A stretch of DNA of 64,000 nt from the IMG/VR virus record IMGVR_UViG_3300021255_004427, positions 96,001 through 160,000 of that record; one strand, written 5' to 3'. This stretch comes from a virus. Taxonomy: Duplodnaviria > Caudoviricetes. Within the stretch, counting starts at the first letter, position 1, and each line of letters starts with the position of its first letter. The position numbers were made by a program, and so were the translations under genes. The notes under the pieces are model-generated. The model was not told where the DNA came from. It worked only from the letters and a program-made list of their open reading frames with translations, and searched no databases. This document shows, piece after piece, positions 51,417-62,137 of this stretch.

Positions 51417-52610
51417 TTGGAAATTAAAAAGGAATATAACCAGTCTCTTGAAGAGACGTACGATGATTGGAAGTATCGCATTATCCTTGGAAAAAGAGAC
51501 GGTAAGGTAGATATGAGCTGGGATGAAATCATCTCTATGCTTGGCCTTACCTGTTCCAATGATTATTTACGCAAAATAGCCGCGGGCATTGAGGGGTATC
51601 GCAATTATTTGCGAAATAGAAATGAAGAGACCTTAGAGAATGCACCGCAGTCCGCCATTGATGCTATTGACGATAAAGAGTTCCAGCTCCGCCGCCAAAA
51701 GATGCGTATGCAGGATCAGAAGCGCGAGCTTAATAAGAAACTTCGTGAATGGGCGCGGGCTGAACATATTCAGGAAGAGTTTATTAAGGCTGTTAAAGAC
51801 CTGCCAAAACTTCCCGAAGTTAATCCCATTAATAAGATTAATGGCGATAAAGAAGGCATACTGATGCTTTCCGACTGGCATGCCGGTATGGTGTCAGACA
51901 ATGCGTGCAATATATTTAATACCCGCGTTCTGCAGGAAAGAGTACAGACGCTGGTGGATAAGACCATAGAGGCATGTGTCTGTCATAATATCAGTAAGGT
52001 ACATATTTTCTGTCTCGGCGATATGGTCAACGGACTTATCCATGTGACCACACGCATTAACAACGAGGAAGACGTTGTTAAACAGAGCATGTTGGTGGCC
52101 GAACTTATCTGTAAGGTAATCAATGAGCTGTTGGAAGTGGCAGATGTTGAATTGTACTGGAGTCGTGGCAATCATGACCGCGTAGTAGCTAATAAAAAAG
52201 AGTCAATCTGTACCGAGAGCTTTGCGGATATGATTCTCTGGTATATCAAAGCAAGGCTTGAAAATACAGACGGGCTTTCCTTCCATGAAAATGAGGTGGA
52301 TGATGAGATTGTCGTGGCAGACGTACTGGGTAACACTATATTCGCTGCCCATGGCCATAAAGATAAACCGACAAAAGCCGTGGAAAATCTTTCACTTCTC
52401 TTAAAGAAGTTCCCGGACATGGTTTTATTGGGTCATTTTCATAGCGCAGCAGAACGAGAAGTGCAGGGCGCGGAAGTTATTGTAAATGGTTCGCTCTGCG
52501 GAACGGATGGGTACGCATTTAGTTTGCGGTGTACAAGTCACCCGGTTCAGAAGTTCTTAGTAATGAGCGAGCAAGGGCGAGAATGTACATATAATATTCG
52601 CCTCGATTAA
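51417..52610 (+). CDS. Calcineurin-like metallophosphoesterase with N-terminal coiled coil
   Basis: SDWH; LGDMVNG; RGNHDR; AHGH; GHFH. Confidence 0.88.
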   Translation: MEIKKEYNQSLEETYDDWKYRIILGKRDGKVDMSWDEIISMLGLTCSNDYLRKIAAGIEGYRNYLRNRNEETLENAPQSAIDAIDDKEFQLRRQKMRMQDQKRELNKKLREWARAEHIQEEFIKAVKDLPKLPEVNPINKINGDKEGILMLSDWHAGMVSDNACNIFNTRVLQERVQTLVDKTIEACVCHNISKVHIFCLGDMVNGLIHVTTRINNEEDVVKQSMLVAELICKVINELLEVADVELYWSRGNHDRVVANKKESICTESFADMILWYIKARLENTDGLSFHENEVDDEIVVADVLGNTIFAAHGHKDKPTKAVENLSLLLKKFPDMVLLGHFHSAAEREVQGAEVIVNGSLCGTDGYAFSLRCTSHPVQKFLVMSEQGRECTYNIRLD

Positions 52611-52768
52611 CAATACATAACACATCATAGCTCGTCGGCAGCGGTAATATTGCTCATGAAATAACATACTTCAAAATATGTTAGGGGCTAAGGCTAGAGC
52701 GAGGGGCATAAGCCTTGTGCAAGAAAACACTCCAGAGAATAACACGATATGTAAGGGTGTGTGATTTT

Positions 52769-53173
52769 ATGGAGCTTGAAGCGGTTGGGCAGATAGTTGG
52801 CGTACTTGGATTTTTGGGAACCGTATTTGGCTTTCTGTTTAAGACATACGGGAAAATCCGGGACTATCTGAACACACAGAACAATTTTCAGGAGCGACTG
52901 GAAAACAAGACTGTTGAAATGAAAGATACTATGGCTGGCCTAAAAGAGGACGTTGCCAAAATTCGAGAGTCGGATATGGTCCAGTCGGAAGGATTGCAAT
53001 GTGTGCTCAGAGAACAGTTGCTTAAAAACATGGAGCCGTGCATAATTAACGGTAAGGCGGACGACCATACACGAGAGAATGTTGAGCATATGTATGTTGC
53101 TTATCGGGCTCTTGGCGGCAACGGTATGATCGAAGCAATGTATAAGCAGTTTGGCAAGCTTCCGCCCGCTTAA
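52769..53173 (+). CDS. Phage membrane protein, holin-like (TM + Y.ALGGNG motif)
   Basis: N-terminal TM, coiled coil, MYVAYRALGGNG. Likely start ATG 52769. Confidence 0.55.
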   Translation: MELEAVGQIVGVLGFLGTVFGFLFKTYGKIRDYLNTQNNFQERLENKTVEMKDTMAGLKEDVAKIRESDMVQSEGLQCVLREQLLKNMEPCIINGKADDHTRENVEHMYVAYRALGGNGMIEAMYKQFGKLPPA

Positions 53174-53218
53174 AAAATGGCGTTCGTAATTCGAGCGTCG
53201 CAAAATATTATACCAAAT

Positions 53219-53251
53219 AAAAATAAGGCAGGATATATGCCTTATTTTTTT
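53219..53251 (+). terminator. Intrinsic terminator
   Basis: AAATAAGGCA...TGCCTTATTT + T-run. Confidence 0.75.
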
Positions 53252-53383
53252 ATGCTATGAGCGCCATAAAACAGCATAAGTAGGCTGTAATAAGCGGACT
53301 GTAAGACTATTAATAAGCATAACTATAATACACACAGATAAAATGCTATAAAACGTAGGAGCTGTAGGAGGAATCCGTAAACA

Positions 53384-54370
53384 ATGTCAATGACAAGTAT
53401 TAAGCAAATAAATGGCGGCAAAGAACTTCAAGGCGATGTTCACGCCCTGTTAAATATAGTTGGAAAAGATAAGGAAGCGTTCTTTAATGAAATACTGAAC
53501 TGGCTTTTGTCGGAAGCGCCGCAGGATTTTAATCCAGAAATTCTTAAGAGCAGCAAGCTGGTTAAGCTGGTTAGTTCGGCAGTAATGGTAAATAATGAAG
53601 AGCCTGAAAAACCATATCTTAGCTTTGTGGAAGAAAATAATGAACCATTTACGCTAAAAACTAACGGTAAAAACTGGGATGGTGCCTTAGAATACTCGAC
53701 AGACACAGAAAATTGGTCAGAATGGGACGGTACTGAGGTTAGTTCTTCTAATGACGGAAAATTGTATTTAAGAGGAACGGGCAATACTGTAATTTCGCAA
53801 GGCTTACCATTTATTTTTACGGATAATAAGAGAATCCAATGTTTTGGTAATATAGAAAACTTGTTGGACTATCAAGCTGTTATAGTAGGTAATCACCCAA
53901 CAATGAGTCAAAGTTGCTTTGACTCATTGTTCTGCGGGTCGTGCCTTATTACAGCGCCAGAATTGCCATCAACAGATTTAGCTTCAAACTGTTATAGTTT
54001 TATGTTCTATGAATGCACACTCCTTGAAAAAGCGCCGCAATTACCTGCTATAAATCTACAAGATTATTGTTATGCTGTTATGTTCCAAAATTGCACCGCT
54101 CTTAAAGAAGCTCCTGAGTTACCTGCAACAGAGATGCATGAACTCTGCTATGGAAATATGTTTGCAGATTGTACATCTCTTATTAAACCACCAACTCAAC
54201 TTCCTGCGTCGGCATTGGCGTCAAACTGCTATAACAGCATGTTCAGAAACTGCACTTCTCTTGCGGGTAGTATTCATTGCCCTGCTTCTACTGCATCAGA
54301 TCCTAACAGACTTGATGCTAGTACAGATAATTTACCCGCTAATACTGCTACCGTAGTATATGACTTGTAA
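53384..54370 (+). CDS. BspA-like leucine-rich repeat surface protein
   Basis: Four to five copies of AP(E/Q)LP(A/S)..L...CY..MF..CT.L. Confidence 0.75.
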   Translation: MSMTSIKQINGGKELQGDVHALLNIVGKDKEAFFNEILNWLLSEAPQDFNPEILKSSKLVKLVSSAVMVNNEEPEKPYLSFVEENNEPFTLKTNGKNWDGALEYSTDTENWSEWDGTEVSSSNDGKLYLRGTGNTVISQGLPFIFTDNKRIQCFGNIENLLDYQAVIVGNHPTMSQSCFDSLFCGSCLITAPELPSTDLASNCYSFMFYECTLLEKAPQLPAINLQDYCYAVMFQNCTALKEAPELPATEMHELCYGNMFADCTSLIKPPTQLPASALASNCYNSMFRNCTSLAGSIHCPASTASDPNRLDASTDNLPANTATVVYDL

Positions 54371-54388
54371 ACAAAGGAGTATTTTTAT

Positions 54389-56566
54389 ATGCTTTCACTA
54401 GCTCAGACCATAAAAGATTTAAAAAATAATATAGTAAATATCTTAAACACCATGGCACCTAAAACATATGTCGACAAAAAGGTAGCTGATTTGGTTAATG
54501 GAGCGCCGGCACAATTAGACACCCTGCAGGAATTATCCAAGGCTCTTAACAATGACAAAGATTTTGGAGCAACTGTTAATAACGCCATTGCTAAGAAACT
54601 GGATTCAGCTGGCGGCACCATTACAGGTAACTTAACGGTAAAAGGTACTTTGACGGCTAAAGCGTCCACGGCCGGTACAGCAGATAGAGCCTTAAAAGCT
54701 GATACATGTACGGGTAACGCAGCTACAGCTTCCAGCGTGTCCTGGTCCGGCATAACAAATAAGCCGACCAGTTTTACTCCGACGATTGCAGCAGAAGTAG
54801 CAGGAACAGCCCCCGCTGCTGGCCAAATCGTGAGAGTAAATAGTCTCGGTGCTCTGATTACCAATGATTTGCTGAAAACGGTGCGCGCTGCAGGAACCGA
54901 TGCTGATATCAGTAAGTTAGTTGCTGAACCTATTTCCATGAAGGAAATGTTTTCAAACTGGCAGAGAATCAGCTGCGCGGCAAATGGCCAGAATCAAAAC
55001 TCGAACAGCAGTGACCAAACCACAGCCCGTGCTTGTTACTATTATGACGACAACACCAGAACCATTGTGTGCCCCAATAACTCTGACCCGTTCTCGGCAT
55101 TTGTTAGCTCAGACAGTTATGCTCCGGATTATCGAATAAAATACCAACTTACAGGACGCGACGGTGATGACGACGGTCTCTGTTTTATAGCAGGATTTAT
55201 GGTGGATAAAGCTGGTAAGTTCCATACACTTACGGTTTGGCGTATGGGCGACAATGAAACGCAAGCTCCTGACCCGATTTCAGACTACAAGGCATCGTCC
55301 CATCAGGCTCGTTTTGCTATTTGCTACGATGTATACGCCGCCTGGATGCCGCAAAGTCCCAATGGAATCGTATTAGCGCGCACGGTTGCGCCACTTAAAA
55401 CCGACTGGTATACGAAAACATGTCTTTGCGAAGTTCAAAAAACTTCCACGCAAATTATTGCGAAAACGGCAGATGTCAACTCCACTGACATGAAGTACAC
55501 GTTAACATTCACTTTGCCTTCTTCAAAACCCGCCGACTGGTCACAAGAAGCTTATGATAACATTAAATTCATGATGCAGAATTCTTCTCAAATCGGTTTT
55601 GGTACGCAATCTAATCCATGTTCATTTAAGATTTTGGAACAGACTGGGTCAATTACGGCTATTACAGTATACAACGTAAACACTGGTAAAAAGCTTACGT
55701 ATATGAACGGAGCAAAGCAGAGCGAAGTTGATGACAGCAATGTTCTAACTCCTGGATGTTTCTTGTATTCCACGATTACTAAGAAGTTGTTCTACGTTAA
55801 GAATAAGGATATGGTAGTTCTTATCGACAACGGCGGAGAAGATATCCTAACTAACAAAAATATCGTTAAAAACGGTACGCCGACAAAAGATGTCTCGTTA
55901 AGGTACGAGACGGAAAACGGTAAAAACGTCGTAATTCCTTACGTAGATGGAGTAAAAGTACCGTTATCTGCGAATACTTGGGATTCCATTACAGGTAAAC
56001 CATCAACATTCGCACCATCCAGTCATAGTCATGGTTGGGGAGAGATTAGCAATAAACCGGCACAAGCAACGAGATGGCCGACTTGGGGCGAGGTATCAGA
56101 AAAGCCTACCTCCTTTACGCCTGCTGCACATAGCCATGGATGGGATTCTATTACAGGCAAACCATCGACTTTTGCGCCCTCCGGCCATAGTCATGCATGG
56201 GATTCCATTACGGGTAAGCCGTCAACATTTACGCCATCTAGCCATAACCATGCGTGGAGTAATATCACTGGCGCACCGGCCACGGCTACGCGTTGGCCGA
56301 CCTGGGATGAAATAACAGGCAAACCCGCTACCTTCCCGTCTAGTGGTGGCGGTACAGCGTCCAGTGTGGCATGGAATAATATTACAGGTAAACCATCAAC
56401 TTTTGCACCGTCCAGCCATGGTCATGCATGGGGAGAGATTAGTGGAGCTCCGGCGCAGGCGACCAGATGGCCGACATGGAGCGAAGTTTCCAGTAAACCC
56501 GGAAGGATCGTTACCGTTGCATCTTGGGATGCTAGTACGGGCGTTCTTCAGTTAAAAACCGTGTAA
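54389..56566 (+). CDS. Tail fibre protein with WDSITGKP/HxH repeats
   Basis: LVNGAPAQLDTLQELSKAL fibre motif; more than 10 W..I.(G/N/E)KP-type repeats, several with HSH/HGH. Confidence 0.85.
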   Translation: MLSLAQTIKDLKNNIVNILNTMAPKTYVDKKVADLVNGAPAQLDTLQELSKALNNDKDFGATVNNAIAKKLDSAGGTITGNLTVKGTLTAKASTAGTADRALKADTCTGNAATASSVSWSGITNKPTSFTPTIAAEVAGTAPAAGQIVRVNSLGALITNDLLKTVRAAGTDADISKLVAEPISMKEMFSNWQRISCAANGQNQNSNSSDQTTARACYYYDDNTRTIVCPNNSDPFSAFVSSDSYAPDYRIKYQLTGRDGDDDGLCFIAGFMVDKAGKFHTLTVWRMGDNETQAPDPISDYKASSHQARFAICYDVYAAWMPQSPNGIVLARTVAPLKTDWYTKTCLCEVQKTSTQIIAKTADVNSTDMKYTLTFTLPSSKPADWSQEAYDNIKFMMQNSSQIGFGTQSNPCSFKILEQTGSITAITVYNVNTGKKLTYMNGAKQSEVDDSNVLTPGCFLYSTITKKLFYVKNKDMVVLIDNGGEDILTNKNIVKNGTPTKDVSLRYETENGKNVVIPYVDGVKVPLSANTWDSITGKPSTFAPSSHSHGWGEISNKPAQATRWPTWGEVSEKPTSFTPAAHSHGWDSITGKPSTFAPSGHSHAWDSITGKPSTFTPSSHNHAWSNITGAPATATRWPTWDEITGKPATFPSSGGGTASSVAWNNITGKPSTFAPSSHGHAWGEISGAPAQATRWPTWSEVSSKPGRIVTVASWDASTGVLQLKTV

Positions 56567-56578
56567 AGGATGTAGTCT

Positions 56579-57247
56579 ATGTCTCTTATTATTTCTGACG
56601 GCGAGCCAAAAGATATACAACTAAATGGAACCGCCGTAAAAGAAGTTTGGTTTGATGGCAAAAAAGTTTGGCCTATCTTTGCCGTTATTATAGATGAATA
56701 CACTGTAACTGGCACTCTTATCACGAAAGACTATTGGTACACTACAATCGAAGAATGCTCCGGAGAATGTTATCAAGATCCTCACGGCAGTATGTCAGAC
56801 CGGAACTGCGACTGTTATGGCAGAGAAGGATATGAGCTTGCTACCTGCTATAGGCTGGAGCTCACATTTAGTGGCAAGATAGATCACCTTCCGATAAAAT
56901 ATATTTCCAAATCTGGGGCTACAGTAATCATAGAGGCTAATAAGCTAAAGCACGACAAAGATAAGAATACCTACACCCATGAGTTCGATACTATGGATAC
57001 CCTTGAAGAAATTCAATCCATATATCCAGATACGGGCGTAACAGACTATAGCATTATTAAGTCCTGCGATATTACGGAACAAAAATATGAGGCACCAGAA
57101 CTAGATTGTGATTGTGGTGAAGAAAACTGTGAAAACGACTGTATAAATTGTGTGAGTGATGACTGCCTTAGTGATATGGGTGACTGCGATTGTGCGGATT
57201 GTTCCGACTGTGATATGGACTGTGATATGGACTGTGGTTTGGATTAA
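56579..57247 (+). CDS. Tail-associated protein with Cys/Asp-rich C-terminal tail (candidate rSAM substrate)
   Basis: N-terminal LNGTAVKEVWFDGKKVWP; last 49 aa contain 12 Cys and 15 Asp. Confidence 0.7.
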   Translation: MSLIISDGEPKDIQLNGTAVKEVWFDGKKVWPIFAVIIDEYTVTGTLITKDYWYTTIEECSGECYQDPHGSMSDRNCDCYGREGYELATCYRLELTFSGKIDHLPIKYISKSGATVIIEANKLKHDKDKNTYTHEFDTMDTLEEIQSIYPDTGVTDYSIIKSCDITEQKYEAPELDCDCGEENCENDCINCVSDDCLSDMGDCDCADCSDCDMDCDMDCGLD

Positions 57248-57261
57248 TATAAGGAGCCGAT

Positions 57262-58290
57262 ATGATAATAAAAAGAATATTTCTTATGCTTGGCCCGAAA
57301 TGCAACCTTCAATGCAAGTATTGCTTGCAGCATGACATGGTGGATCATGACAGTACCATAGTCAAGCCGGAAGTGAAAGAATGGATACAAAGCAAGGTGC
57401 CGACAGATTTTGACGCACCTTTAACCATTACGTTTTACGGTGGCGAGCCGTTGGTCTATTGGGGCGCTATTAAAGATGTCGTGCAGAGTATTACCGGTAA
57501 CGTCAACTACGGCATAATTTCTAATGGCAAGCTCATGACTCCCGATAAAGTCGACTTTATTAACGATTACGATATCGGCGTGGCAATCTCGTGGGATGGC
57601 GCTAACGTAGAAGAAACCCGTGGCTATGATGCTGTCAAAAGCAACCCAAATATCTTAGATATTAAACGGCTAAGCTTTTCAGCAGTGCTTAGCTCGCATA
57701 CTTATCCGAGAGATTTTTTAGACGAACTTGATCCGATCATGGGAACGTATAGACGAATTCATGGAAATTCTCCTGGGGTTAATATAGATACGATAATGGA
57801 CTTTGGTAATTGTGGTGAATTACGCGAGATGGATTGCTCAAAAATTGAAGAGCAAATGCGTTACATAATTCAAAACAAAAAAAATAATTCAGCCTATTAT
57901 CGTATCGTTAACCGCTGGCAGAAGCGATATGTCTTTTACCGCAAATACGTAGACAAGACGCCTCTTTGCGGTAACGGCTATGCCGTATGGAACGTAGACG
58001 TTAACGGCGATGTATATCGTTGCCATAACTGCGGCGAAAAAGTCGGCACAATATTTGAACCTCCTGAAGTCGTGCTGGACAGGGTAAAGAAAATGGATCC
58101 AACATACAAAAACTATCAGGAAAAATGCAAAGATTGTCCGGCACAGCCTCTATGCCGCAGCGGCTGCCCGCTAATAGATTCTCAAGGAAGAGAAGACTAC
58201 TACTGCGACATTAAAAAGGCATTCTTATATCCTTTAATCGAAGATATGAATGTGCCTAAAGAAACAGGAAGGATAATACATATTGGATAA
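57262..58290 (+). CDS. Radical SAM / SPASM-domain protein
   Basis: CNLQCKYC (CxxxCxxC); FYGGEP; ISNG; ISWDG; SPASM CGNG...GDVYRC...CKDC.....CRSGCP...C. Confidence 0.93.
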   Translation: MIIKRIFLMLGPKCNLQCKYCLQHDMVDHDSTIVKPEVKEWIQSKVPTDFDAPLTITFYGGEPLVYWGAIKDVVQSITGNVNYGIISNGKLMTPDKVDFINDYDIGVAISWDGANVEETRGYDAVKSNPNILDIKRLSFSAVLSSHTYPRDFLDELDPIMGTYRRIHGNSPGVNIDTIMDFGNCGELREMDCSKIEEQMRYIIQNKKNNSAYYRIVNRWQKRYVFYRKYVDKTPLCGNGYAVWNVDVNGDVYRCHNCGEKVGTIFEPPEVVLDRVKKMDPTYKNYQEKCKDCPAQPLCRSGCPLIDSQGREDYYCDIKKAFLYPLIEDMNVPKETGRIIHIG

Positions 58291-59038
58291 TAGTATAGTT
58301 AGAAAGCAATCCGCTTATGTACCGCAAGAGCAACTCATCTTAGGCAATGTGCTTGGAAGTGCACACTATGGACTTGCGGATGAATGGTCTGATCAGGACG
58401 TATGCTATCTACTGATGCCGTCTAAGCAAGACTTAATCCGCGGACGAAAACCTCAGCGCCTGTTGTTTATGGATCAGTGCGACGTCAGTATGTTTGACAT
58501 TCGCAGCCTTATGTTCTTTATCGCTGAAGGCGATATTAATAAACTAGGACTGCTCTTTAACGATGACTGTATGTATGTAGCTCCCCAGTTTAAGGATTTT
58601 GTTGACCAGCTTGTTGCGCGGCGAGAAGATTTAATCAATACTATATCGCCGTCCATACATGCTTGGGCTTTAAATATGTTTGAGTATAAATTGGGACAAA
58701 TCCATTACTACAAGGACACCGAAGAGAAATACAAGCAGTTCGGTTACAATACGAAGAATGTGGCGCAGGCTATTTATTATATCCGTATAGCCATGCAGTA
58801 TTTCATCAACCGTAACTACAGCGTAGAAAATCCTATGCTAAAAGCCTATGATTGCTCCGGCTTTCGCGATGAAATCCTAGATATCAAACACGGTAAGTAC
58901 TCGGAAGAGGAGGCTGTAGCTATAGCTGAAGCAGAATACGCGAAATTAATCGGCATTACTAACTTAGGAAGAAACCATAACGTAGGTTGGGTTAATCAGC
59001 TGGTTTACGACGAAATAGAAAAAATGTTAGGAACGTGA
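58283..59038 (+). CDS. Pol-beta superfamily nucleotidyltransferase (PF10127-like)
   Basis: GSAHYGLADEWSDQD (GS..YG.....SD.D); later ILDIKHGKY; overlaps the rSAM gene by 8 nt. Confidence 0.8.
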   Translation: MDNSIVRKQSAYVPQEQLILGNVLGSAHYGLADEWSDQDVCYLLMPSKQDLIRGRKPQRLLFMDQCDVSMFDIRSLMFFIAEGDINKLGLLFNDDCMYVAPQFKDFVDQLVARREDLINTISPSIHAWALNMFEYKLGQIHYYKDTEEKYKQFGYNTKNVAQAIYYIRIAMQYFINRNYSVENPMLKAYDCSGFRDEILDIKHGKYSEEEAVAIAEAEYAKLIGITNLGRNHNVGWVNQLVYDEIEKMLGT

Positions 59039-59044
59039 CGAATC

Positions 59045-59563
59045 ATGCTAACCTTACCTCAGATAATAAAAGACTTATTATCTAAAGCTAAAACCATTAG
59101 TAATAATATCACAGAAACTTATATTAAGAATTTAATCACTACGGAAATAGAGCGCTCTATTTCTTCTTCTACTGATGGGCCATTATATTTAGCTATTAAA
59201 AACGCGGCTTTTACCAACCTTCCTCCCAAAATTGGTTATGGCAAAGAAAAGACGCTTACAATCACCCCCGTCGGTGGACAGTTAAAAGTAAATATCCCCT
59301 CACAGGCAATATACTTAGGTGGATTCGGCAGTATTATCCCCGCGCAAACAATAAGCCTGCCAGCTAATCAGGATAATTACATTTATGTAGTCCGCGACGC
59401 CGCCGACTATACAAAAGTAAGCTTTGAGATTTACGACCACTTACTTGGCGGAAAAGATAAAGATATCCACTTTACCCGTATTCTTTGCGCCCGCTTTAAG
59501 ACGGATGGTTCTAAGGTTATTGAACAGGAGGCGTTCGAGACAGCGAACTATTCCTGTTTTTAA
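59045..59563 (+). CDS. Short member of a fibre/adhesin paralogue family
   Basis: Shares MLTLP..KDL, AAFTNLPPKIGY and C-terminal IYLGG...AN.DNYIY...YDHLLG...F.RIL with 59585. Confidence 0.7.
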   Translation: MLTLPQIIKDLLSKAKTISNNITETYIKNLITTEIERSISSSTDGPLYLAIKNAAFTNLPPKIGYGKEKTLTITPVGGQLKVNIPSQAIYLGGFGSIIPAQTISLPANQDNYIYVVRDAADYTKVSFEIYDHLLGGKDKDIHFTRILCARFKTDGSKVIEQEAFETANYSCF

Positions 59564-59584
59564 TAATATACATGGAGAGATTTT

Positions 59585-62137
59585 ATGTTAACGCTACCAT
59601 TAACCTTAAAAGATTTAAAGAATTCTATAGGAACAGCGTACACTACGGTTACAAACGCCACCTTCCTAAATCGCATTAAAAATCGCATTAAGGAATCCAT
59701 CAACACGAATTCCTCATCTGGTGAAATATACAATGCTGTTAAGGATGCAGCGTTTACAAATTTGCCGCCCAAAATCGGCTATCTCGACGAAAAGACTGTC
59801 CCGATGTACGCTGCTTACAATATGAGCAACATGGCCGTGACCGACTTACCCTGTTGGATTACTTCGGACTTGGAAGGGAGAGAGATTACCTATTTTAGAG
59901 CGTCTCAGGACGGAGCGCATGGCCTTCAGATATATCGCGCCTTTAGAAGTAACTTATCTGACACGAACGGCTATACTGTAGAAAATCAGCCACTAGCAAT
60001 AACGATTGATGGCGTAGATACAAAGTTTAATCGTGTATATGGTATCTCTAACGATTATATTGTCTTACAGGCAGAAAATGGAAAACGCTACCATTTTGCT
60101 ACTTACTATTCTTCCAATACGGACAACTGGAAGTTAATGCGAGAGGTTACTCATTTTAATAGCTACGGCGATGTAATGGATATACTTTGGTTCGATTCGG
60201 TAAAAAGATACCTTGTTGTATGCCAAACTGGACAGGGAATGGTATATCTCGTTGCAGATGAAAATCTGAACGAAATGTATCGCGATATGGTCTTTGACTT
60301 TACGAAGTTTCACCATAGCGGCAAACCAACTTGGACGTATCATTATAGCACGTATGGCAATACGGCTTCTGCAGCATATATACCAGACCAGAACCGGCTG
60401 GCAACCGTATTCCGAATGGATGCGAATGTCAGAGAAAACGGCTTTGTCATTTACAACTCGGATATGGCGCATCATCCATTGTATTGTAATACCATCAGTA
60501 ATTTTACCCCAGACAAACTACTGACGAATCATTACTTCGCTACGGCGCAGTGGGATACCCCGTTAGCCACTTATTACGATGCGGCAAAGTGGGATTGGTG
60601 GGGCGACAATACGGTTAAGATGGCTACGGGATTAACCAGTCGTGGCACAGAATACTGTCAATATGACTCGCTGAATAAAATGTTTTATTACACACATGGT
60701 GTTCGCGACTGGGCCGGCGTATATATCAAGCGTATCGCCGTTGAAAACCTAAGTTCAAGGGCTGGCACTCGTTTTTTGGATGACAACGCTGGACAAGGAT
60801 GGAACTGGCAAACGCCAGACACTTCTCCGTGGGCCAAGCAAACATATGCCCCTTCCGTGATGTATGACTCTATCGTTTTGCGTGCGCAGTCTAACAAGTA
60901 CGGCGGTGCGTGGAATAATATTATTATTGCGCCGGAGGCGACATCCAACGCAAATATACTGGCTGTTACGGCAGGCTCGTGGGCTGTAGGTGGTGGCGAT
61001 ATAACAAATATTGACTGGGCCGCTGGGTATGGGCGTTATTCCTGCACGAAGGAAAACTTCAATACTAAAGATGGCGTGTCATGGTATCAAATTCTGGAAG
61101 AGAATGGATACTACAATGTTTACCGTCTGGATTATAAAGCTCGTAAGGATCAGGTTGGCAATACTTACAACGACAATGTGTATCGTCCCGCAAGCCCTAT
61201 AGCTAAATTTAAAAAGACTCTTAACTTTGTTGGAGGCATAACGTCATTTGGTTCTTGGGCTTTTAGAAGCGCATCTTTTGGCGGCGGTAATAAGCTCATC
61301 ATCTTCGGGCGCATTTCAAGCAATTATAAATGTGTGAAGAATAGTGAAGACAAGTACGTTCCGCAAGACGAGAACGCTATGCCAGCCTATTATATTATCT
61401 CGGAAGATGGAAACTATTACAAGGTAGATTTACCGCAAAACATGCGCGACTGGTATTTATCTGAAGCAAGTGACCGATGGCCATATATCCGAAATCCAGA
61501 TTGGGTTAATCGCACGCCCTTCTTGGATAGTGATGGTCTGACGCTCTATTATAATAGTCATGAGTTCTATCATGGTAATGGCGATTACTGCTTCGCTGGT
61601 TGGAGAGTAATTTTTTCTTCCGACCTTAAGACTGCCACGAAAGTTGATTCTGTAGCTGCAGGTGATGGCACATGGTGTGGCATCGAAGTTCTTGGTTGGA
61701 ATAAGCGCTTCGGTTATTACCGTACCCGCACCAGAAACCGTACAGGCTCTTTAATTGATACCAGTGCTACAAACCCGGTTAATGTTATTAATCTTGGTGG
61801 CGACGTAAAAACATATACCATTAATAATAGTGGCTCGGTAGGTCTAATTGCTTATATTCAGGCAACGCCTATTTATCTCGGCGGCTATTACAGCGTGCTG
61901 CCCGCTACGGAAGTATACTTAAAAGCCAATAGCGATAATTACATTTACTTATCCAGAGATAAATTGGACTACCAGAAGATAAACGTAGAGAATTACGACC
62001 ATTTGCTAGGGGCGCAGAATAATGATATGGGCATTAACTTCTCCCGTATCCTTATCTCGAAGATAACTACGGATAATAAAAGTGCTACGAGTCAGGAGTA
62101 TTTTAATATCGATTATTATGGAGCAAGCAAGTCATGA
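59585..62137 (+). CDS. Large fibre/receptor-binding-like protein (850 aa), paralogue with an inserted beta-rich domain
   Basis: Same N- and C-terminal segments as 59045, with about 680 aa of Trp/Tyr-rich sequence between them. Confidence 0.7.
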   Translation: MLTLPLTLKDLKNSIGTAYTTVTNATFLNRIKNRIKESINTNSSSGEIYNAVKDAAFTNLPPKIGYLDEKTVPMYAAYNMSNMAVTDLPCWITSDLEGREITYFRASQDGAHGLQIYRAFRSNLSDTNGYTVENQPLAITIDGVDTKFNRVYGISNDYIVLQAENGKRYHFATYYSSNTDNWKLMREVTHFNSYGDVMDILWFDSVKRYLVVCQTGQGMVYLVADENLNEMYRDMVFDFTKFHHSGKPTWTYHYSTYGNTASAAYIPDQNRLATVFRMDANVRENGFVIYNSDMAHHPLYCNTISNFTPDKLLTNHYFATAQWDTPLATYYDAAKWDWWGDNTVKMATGLTSRGTEYCQYDSLNKMFYYTHGVRDWAGVYIKRIAVENLSSRAGTRFLDDNAGQGWNWQTPDTSPWAKQTYAPSVMYDSIVLRAQSNKYGGAWNNIIIAPEATSNANILAVTAGSWAVGGGDITNIDWAAGYGRYSCTKENFNTKDGVSWYQILEENGYYNVYRLDYKARKDQVGNTYNDNVYRPASPIAKFKKTLNFVGGITSFGSWAFRSASFGGGNKLIIFGRISSNYKCVKNSEDKYVPQDENAMPAYYIISEDGNYYKVDLPQNMRDWYLSEASDRWPYIRNPDWVNRTPFLDSDGLTLYYNSHEFYHGNGDYCFAGWRVIFSSDLKTATKVDSVAAGDGTWCGIEVLGWNKRFGYYRTRTRNRTGSLIDTSATNPVNVINLGGDVKTYTINNSGSVGLIAYIQATPIYLGGYYSVLPATEVYLKANSDNYIYLSRDKLDYQKINVENYDHLLGAQNNDMGINFSRILISKITTDNKSATSQEYFNIDYYGASKS

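Follow-up and report, generated by a model that had tools for sequence, protein, structure and literature searches.

A putative radical SAM/SPASM maturase encoded beside a cysteine-rich protein in the tail-fibre module of a giant uncultivated phage

To our knowledge, cross-linking by radical S-adenosylmethionine (SAM)/SPASM enzymes is known so far for secreted peptides and a few enzyme subunits. QhpD installs Cys-to-Asp/Glu thioethers in QhpC, the gamma subunit of quinohemoprotein amine dehydrogenase, which is retained in a larger assembly. PapB also forms Cys-to-Asp/Glu thioethers, in PapA (freyrasin); it reportedly links the Cys to an acceptor carboxylate C-terminal to it, at variable spacing, and its recognition of the substrate is described as driven by a leader and a RiPP recognition element (RRE; RiPP, a peptide made on the ribosome and then modified after translation) (PMC12373016). 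We analyzed a stretch of 64,000 nucleotides (the window), bases 96001-160000 of the 224,101-bp IMG/VR virus record IMGVR_UViG_3300021255_004427, which has a completeness estimate of 95%. Nearly all long open reading frames (ORFs) of the window are on the + strand. Three of them sit among the tail-fibre genes of this giant uncultivated phage: gene A (56579-57247, + strand, 222 aa), a candidate fibre-associated substrate; gene B (57262-58290, + strand, 342 aa), which encodes a radical SAM/SPASM enzyme and is the proposed maturase of A; and gene C (58283-59038, + strand, 251 aa, TTG start), which encodes a protein with a Pol-beta nucleotidyltransferase fold. The close linkage reported in a preliminary description of this locus was confirmed, with a gap of 14 nt between A and B and an overlap of 8 nt that couples C translationally to B. 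A Shine-Dalgarno-like sequence lies ahead of each of the three starts. No such cassette was found described in the open-access literature on radical SAM, SPASM, ranthipeptide or RiPP with phage, prophage, tail fibre or virion. We propose that B modifies two Cys-rich segments of A, an internal loop and the C-terminal tail, probably by thioether cross-links to nearby Asp, Asn, Glu or Gln residues (Asx/Glx), and that C is a lineage-specific third component. We put the probability of this whole statement at roughly 0.5 and are more confident of the narrower claim that B acts on A.

The class of B is clear from its domains. B passed the cut-offs of the radical SAM family PF04055 (38.4 bits vs. 29.5) and of the SPASM family TIGR04085 (40.5 bits vs. 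27), and it matched phrog_1802. The radical SAM cluster motif CX3CX2C (C14, C18, and C21; 57301-57324, + strand) and the SPASM region (57967-58206, + strand; C236, G249, C254, C289, C292, C298, C302, and C315) are as they had been read before, and the motif, the seven SPASM Cys, and G249 proved invariant in 44 homologues. The best solved relative of B is the ranthipeptide-type thioether maturase CteB (PDB 5WGG and 5WHY), which has the same CX3CX2C motif and seven-Cys SPASM set and whose SCIFF substrate, CteA, is also Cys-rich. The profile of the B family matched CteB 5WGG at E = 4e-32 over CteB residues 96-417, which comprise the radical SAM core and the SPASM domain. In contrast to B, CteB carries an N-terminal RRE of ~95 residues that binds the leader peptide. 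Residue 7 of B aligns to CteB residue 96, and QhpD and the SCIFF maturase were aligned from residues 93 and 95, respectively. Since the alignment to CteB begins there, B starts at the radical SAM core and has no N-terminal RRE. The substrates differ as well, as CteB acts on a free peptide of 45 residues while A is a folded, 222-aa protein of the tail module.

Of 54 matching NCBIfam models, the best for B was that of the PapB family, NF047865 (4e-25), followed by QhpD (7e-17), nif11-type, CcpM, and SCIFF models. The nearest relatives of B, namely PapB, QhpD, CcpM, SCIFF, and CteB, are Cys-crosslinking maturases, which supports a cross-linking role. The tail of A offers pairs of the PapB type, with an acidic residue (Asp or Glu) 1-5 residues downstream of 11 of its 12 Cys; unlike the PapB system, neither an RRE nor a leader is evident for B and A. 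QhpD differs from B by an N-terminal extension, and its setting is a periplasmic enzyme, whereas the setting here would be a virus particle. The anaerobic sulfatase-maturating enzyme anSME (PDB 4K36-4K39) is a radical SAM/SPASM enzyme of similar size to B that lacks an RRE and acts on a Cys in a protein substrate. However, anSME oxidizes a single Cys and A offers at least 12, and the sulfatase motif Cys/Ser-x-Pro/Ala-x-Arg is absent from A. The locus also departs from a classical RiPP cluster, in which a short precursor is accompanied by a protease or exporter, since the putative substrate is a folded protein of 222 aa and the neighbors are fibre genes.

A has an Ig/CBM-like beta-sandwich as its core, a hairpin motif at the N-terminus, and two Cys-rich parts, a loop and a Cys/Asp tail. 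It falls into no family of Pfam, NCBIfam, or PHROGs, and an exhaustive profile search yielded a small family of 15 representative relatives. When A was modeled with AlphaFold2 (AF2) on an alignment of 17 sequences, the core (residues 39-55 and 85-169) had a predicted local distance difference test score (pLDDT) >90, and the low-confidence segments were the loop at residues 58-83 (pLDDT <50) and the tail at residues 175-222. Both of these segments are Cys-rich and both are predicted to be disordered on a confident core, suggesting that an enzyme could reach them. Foldseek gave no match to the model at E <= 0.001. VIA-align matched the core to generic Ig/CBM/FN3-like sandwiches only (Z up to 4.8) and, therefore, a specific fold assignment was dropped.

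The C-terminal (D/N)C-repeat tail (57101-57247, + strand) contains 12 Cys and 15 Asp and no Arg or Pro. A recount agreed with the preliminary description that all 12 Cys in the last 48 residues follow Asp (10) or Asn (2), and 0 of 200,000 composition-preserving shuffles reached this arrangement. Among the 217 ORFs of the genome, the tail is the most Cys-dense 40-aa window, with 11 Cys compared to 7 in the next highest. The CX3(D/E) motifs that had also been pointed out are present at 4 of the 12 Cys, but this strict spacing, typical of PapA, was not conserved in alignments of the A homologues. A perfect 12-nt tandem repeat of 2.6 copies (57206-57236, + strand), detected by Tandem Repeats Finder, encodes Asp-Cys-Asp-Met units of the tail. 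The homologue P0001, which is 98% identical to A, has one such unit fewer, suggesting that the array changes by slippage. The internal loop (56750-56827, + strand) is a second Cys-rich segment that the preliminary description had not noted, and it is kept in relatives without the tail.

The A-B-C set was found to be kept, with spacings of 4-20 nt or overlaps, in the loci L001, L006, L007, L008, L010, L018, L101, L104, L105, and L109. Across these lineages, A is 31-98% and B is 49-95% identical. L007 and L008 are two phage contigs of 184-211 kb with the cassette at the same site. L109 and L110 belong to a small phage in which the order is C-A-B and the cassette is just ahead of the lysis genes; in small phages A is the last gene before these. 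L018 (3831-4982) has two tandem A-family paralogues before B, the first with 2 Cys and the second with 11 Cys. The identity to L007 and L008 is 61.5% for A and 71% for B, while C and the two fibre-type genes after it (172 aa and 850 aa) are 94-99% identical in both and the upstream fibre is 95% identical in L007. By these identities, A and B form an island of divergence and diverge together. We considered whether the divergence of B tracks the type of tail (B is 95% identical in L001, with a long tail, and 71% in L007, with a short one); this idea was dropped due to L006, which has the long-tail ending with a B of 57% identity.

The integrity of B and the Cys content of A are correlated. Fourteen loci combine a Cys-rich A (at least 7 Cys) with sufficient downstream sequence, and in all 14 there is a B whose CX3CX2C motif is intact. 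In one of the 14, L002 (5240-6150), B is split into ORFs of 220 aa and 72 aa, by a frameshift or an assembly error. Conversely, both B and C are missing from the 4 kb downstream of P0093 (L107/L108), a Cys-free A homologue. A second Cys-free homologue, P0090 (L096), has no B next door; the adjoining 77-aa gene is not a radical SAM gene, and the contig is short. L106 has a tandem duplication of A with one Cys. After it come a B-like gene in which CX3CX2C and GGEP are lost but the SPASM Cys retained, and then C. A short way upstream, a 64-aa mini-protein, made up of the A N-terminal motif and a Cys/Asp tail, overlaps by 4 nt a 107-aa radical SAM N-terminal fragment that retains the CX3CX2C motif. 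This region (L106:2978-5350) looks decayed or rearranged.

B homologues also lie beside Cys-tailed proteins that are unrelated in scaffold to A. In L013, the partner is a protein of 447 aa whose (D/N)C tail spans 42 residues, and a B homologue of 46% identity comes 14 nt after it. In L019, the partner has 454 aa and a tail of the same kind, and the B homologue is 47% identical. In a large clade, B homologues of 34-38% identity are flanked on one side by a tail-fibre gene (phrog_454, 1.8e-44) and on the other by a gene for a protein of 100-300 aa whose tail has Cys-Gln repeats and then (D/N)C repeats. The loci L021-L058 from IMG/VR, of a large phage clade, show the gene order tail fibre, radical SAM/SPASM, and then one or two small proteins. 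In these small proteins an N-terminal helix is conserved, and long Cys-Gln-x-Cys-Gln repeats give way at the end to (D/N)C repeats and Gly-Asp. Pfam gave nothing for the Cys-tailed partners of these other clades, and PHROGs gave nothing for three of the five scanned, the partners in L013 and L019 matching function-unknown families only. To place these neighbors against a background, ORFs with at least 8 Cys per 40 aa were counted in 38 dereplicated IMG/VR loci. Such an ORF was present at 14 of 38 positions +1 and at 10 of 37 positions +2, as opposed to 4 of 252 positions four to eight genes from the B homologue on either side. By this survey, the pairing is widespread. In the phage studied here, the tail of A adjoins the sole match to B in the whole genome. 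The Sporomusaceae genome L111 (3865-6074) encodes a 161-aa protein with (D/N)C repeats and then a long Gly-Asp repeat; a B homologue (38%) lies two genes downstream of it. This protein adjoins a Cys-free 79-aa paralogue, and there are no tail-fibre genes nearby. In L111, the same pair of enzyme and substrate may serve a bacterium, outside any virion.

The co-occurrence of B with a Cys-rich A, their correlated loss, and the recurrence of the pairing on unrelated scaffolds support the modification of A by B. This part of the preliminary description, that the radical SAM/SPASM enzyme acts on a neighboring tail-module protein, thus fared well, with the correction that the conserved feature is the loop and not the long (D/N)C tail.

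C matched phrog_388 "nucleotidyltransferase" at 1.5e-14. Its residues G25, S26, D37, D39, and D72, which form GS...DxD and a third acidic residue, are invariant in nine homologues. An AF2 model (pLDDT 88) gave Foldseek matches to HalB (the best, E = 3.4e-4), kanamycin nucleotidyltransferase (KNTase), and 3C18, with E from 3e-4 to 2e-3 and TM-scores of 0.3-0.47. C also matched RlaP (PF10127) weakly, at 18 bits where the cut-off is 23; the same weak match was seen in 8 of the 9 C homologues (best E = 3.8e-5), and the nearest Atlas clusters to C are RlaP-bearing. RlaP, KNTase, and HalB share with C a two-domain nucleotidyltransferase fold with GS...DxD, at the low TM-scores given. By these matches, C is assigned to the Pol-beta superfamily of nucleotidyltransferases and is apparently active. 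C is kept in nine loci and is coupled to B or A in every locus with the A domain, even in the rearranged order C-A-B of L109. It is missing from the other clades with a Cys tail and B. By this distribution, C travels with the A domain and not with Cys tails in general. We know of no enzyme of the RlaP, KNTase, or HalB type that works with a radical SAM maturase.

The sequence of events that we favor is as follows. Within the tail-fibre module, A would serve as a small accessory protein, probably located on or at the end of the upstream fibre, which has His-x-His motifs. Its rigid beta-sandwich would bear two flexible segments, the loop and the tail, which consist almost wholly of Cys in alternation with Asp, Asn, or Glu. 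The RRE-less B, an enzyme of the CteB/PapB/anSME type, would act on these segments inside the infected cell, while the fibre assembles or earlier. The likeliest reaction would be the formation of intramolecular thioethers (ranthionine- or sactionine-type) that join the sulfur of a Cys to a carbon in an Asx/Glx residue close to it. The floppy segments would then become a compact, covalently stapled knot that is stable in reducing conditions. C, as part of the module in the A-domain lineage, could modify A or could be an accessory or recognition subunit for B. A can be compared with gp38 of T2-type phages, a small adhesin encoded right after the gp37 long tail fibre, which has His-x-His metal sites. 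The N-terminal part of gp38 serves for attachment and is conserved, and its C-terminal part is variable and of low complexity. The likeness of A to gp38 is by analogy only, as no sequence or fold similarity was found, and gp38 uses Gly-rich motifs and needs no modifying enzyme.

Several observations weigh against this proposal. The tail is cut to 3 Cys in L007/L008 and is almost absent in L010/L101/L105, while the loop and B are kept in all of them, and in L010, L101, L105, and L109 the loop is the only Cys-rich segment and B is still present. By these comparisons, the long tail is dispensable and is not the conserved element. Since relatives drop the tail yet keep the loop and B, the target is better named the flexible Cys-Asx/Glx segments of A than the tail. 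Cys-x-Cys arrays with Asp are also typical of metal-thiolate binding proteins. A clade of B homologues of 41% identity (L015, L016, and L112) lies between fibre-like genes and has no Cys-rich neighbor; in this clade a terminator separates the B homologue from the upstream fibre. Several more distant B homologues also have no Cys-rich neighbor, and some distant homologues are in non-phage contexts. The preliminary description had named such enzymes without a Cys-rich neighbor as evidence against its reading, and in part, in the clade of 41% identity, this was found. The A-B-C cassette was absent from 50,697 isolate phage records in a nucleotide search; a protein search of isolate phages gave only relatives of B, at no more than 32% identity. 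The putative placement of A in the virion draws only on its position after the fibre and on the conserved N-terminal motif.

The chemistry of B is also less certain than its class. B scored 88.7 bits against the PapB family NF047865, far below the equivalog cut-off of 340, and fell below every other NCBIfam equivalog cut-off as well (QhpD, 61 vs. 453; SCIFF, 53.5 vs. 425; anSME TIGR03942, 51.1 vs. 349). Beside CteB, the next solved relatives of the B family are the cyclopropyl synthase 8VPO (1.2e-24) and anSME (1.2e-18), and the 8VPO enzyme makes a cyclopropane (PMC10878394). Formylglycine is the product that anSME makes from Cys/Ser by oxidation. Given these relatives, homology sets the enzyme class of B and not its reaction. 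Since the CX3(D/E) spacing is unconserved and B is not a PapB equivalog, the Cys-to-Asp/Glu thioether of the PapB/QhpD kind that had been proposed earlier is one plausible chemistry and is not established. In addition, B has no RRE by which to recognize its substrate. A prediction of a complex of B (with three 4Fe-4S clusters and SAM) and full-length A gave scores of 0.00, 0.68, and 0.00, which were given no weight either way.

Four other explanations were weighed. The same enzyme-substrate pair could use a different chemistry, such as alpha-carbon sactionine formation, formylglycine formation as by anSME, or C-C cross-links. The matches to 8VPO and anSME and the failure of B to reach any equivalog cut-off are in line with this, as is the lack of an RRE, by which B would act on a protein, like anSME, rather than on a leader peptide. 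However, the anSME motif requires Pro/Ala and Arg after the Cys, residues that the tail does not supply, and the strongest sequence matches of B are thioether-forming enzymes. Also, the partner segments across clades share Cys beside Asp, Asn, Glu, or Gln, which are the residue types that serve as acceptors for PapB, QhpD, and NxxC-type enzymes. We therefore regard a different chemistry as rather unlikely. The loop and tail could instead bind metal (metallothionein-like Zn, Fe, or Cu, or Fe-S) and form a metal-stabilized tip, with B acting elsewhere. Cys-x-Cys repeats among acidic residues recall proteins with metal-thiolate clusters, the adjacent 725-aa fibre is already rich in His-x-His motifs, and some B homologues have no Cys-rich neighbor. 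Metal binding does not account for an intact B always being found with a Cys-rich A, for the B that is absent or without CX3CX2C where A is Cys-free, or for the unrelated Cys-tailed proteins beside B homologues, and we find it improbable.

It was also considered that B, C, or both have nothing to do with A and are auxiliary or counter-defence cargo in a variable fibre region, with C working, for example, on nucleic acids like HalB or RlaP. Tail-fibre regions are hot spots for cargo genes, C is closest in fold to HalB, an enzyme of Hailong defence, and in sequence to the RlaP family, which is linked to RNA repair, and C is missing from the other Cys-tail/B clades. The coupling of C to B or A in all A-domain loci and the correlation of B presence and loss with the Cys in A speak against hitch-hiking and make this quite unlikely. 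The last possibility is that A is a RiPP precursor with a large leader, and that its modified tail or loop is cleaved and released as a ranthipeptide-like product for signaling or the inhibition of competitors instead of staying on the virion. The 64-aa mini-protein of L106 does have a leader-plus-core layout, and the (D/N)C-repeat protein of Sporomusaceae L111 lies near a B homologue without fibre genes. On the other hand, Pfam and PHROG scans found no protease or transporter domain in any of the nine proteins from 51417 to 62137, A always comes directly after a tail-fibre gene and is the last gene before the lysis genes in small phages, and one of the Cys-rich segments lies inside a folded domain, as a loop. 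We tried and rejected the idea that the N-terminal motif of A is a leader for B, since Cys-free A homologues without B keep this motif. Release of a peptide is thus the least likely of the four, and we think it very improbable.

The genes around the cassette are of the fibre type. The upstream tail fibre (54389-56566, + strand, 725 aa) matched many tail-fibre PHROGs, with 6e-43 as the best, and has about ten Ser/Gly-His-x-His-x-Trp repeats (Ser-His-x-His-x-Trp type). The His-x-His motifs of T4-type fibre tips bind metal ions, and these repeats recall them. The repeat number varies widely among related phages, in which the fibre has 725, 594, or 340 aa. The C-terminal end of this fibre type lies directly upstream of A in every related locus (e.g. 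L005, L101, and L104-L107). Downstream of the cassette are the 172-aa and 850-aa fibre-type genes (59045-62137, + strand), which show 98-99% identity in related phages, and a third protein of >622 aa starts at 62134. These downstream genes match no named family despite sharing the N-terminal motif of the 725-aa fibre. This motif of ~15 residues (Met-Leu-Ser/Thr-Leu ... Lys-Asp-Leu-Lys-Asn type) is common to the four fibre-type proteins starting at 54389, 59045, 59585, and 62134, which suggests interchangeable fibres with a common attachment site. The 172-aa and 850-aa proteins share 44% identity in their C-terminal parts.

The fibre is preceded by a 328-aa protein with BspA-like leucine-rich repeats (53384-54370; DUF285/LRR_5 type in its relatives in L001), and a calcineurin-like metallophosphoesterase (51417-52610; PF00149, 1.8e-7) is encoded just upstream of the fibre module. 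The 328-aa protein is merely 55-67% identical among otherwise near-identical phages and is, therefore, a second variable module, probably host-binding. Transcription units could not be defined from a promoter and terminator scan because the counts did not exceed those of shuffled sequence, with nothing above chance inside the cassette.

More broadly, several unrelated lineages of tailed phages may staple Cys-Asx/Glx segments of fibre tip proteins with multiple thioethers by dedicated, RRE-less radical SAM/SPASM enzymes, giving a redox-proof, protease-resistant knot on the virion. The array would lengthen and shorten by slippage, and in the lineage described here a nucleotidyltransferase would add a further maturation step. 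We offer this wider scheme tentatively and consider it possible but somewhat doubtful. If true, it would be the first case of a virus structural protein with an enzymatic modification of the RiPP type. It would also point to RRE-independent enzymes for flexible segments of folded proteins, which would be useful in protein engineering. For the phages themselves, the use of such enzymes on fibre proteins would be a new chemistry for virion maturation, with a bearing on host recognition and on how stable fibres are where the habitat is reducing or proteolytic.

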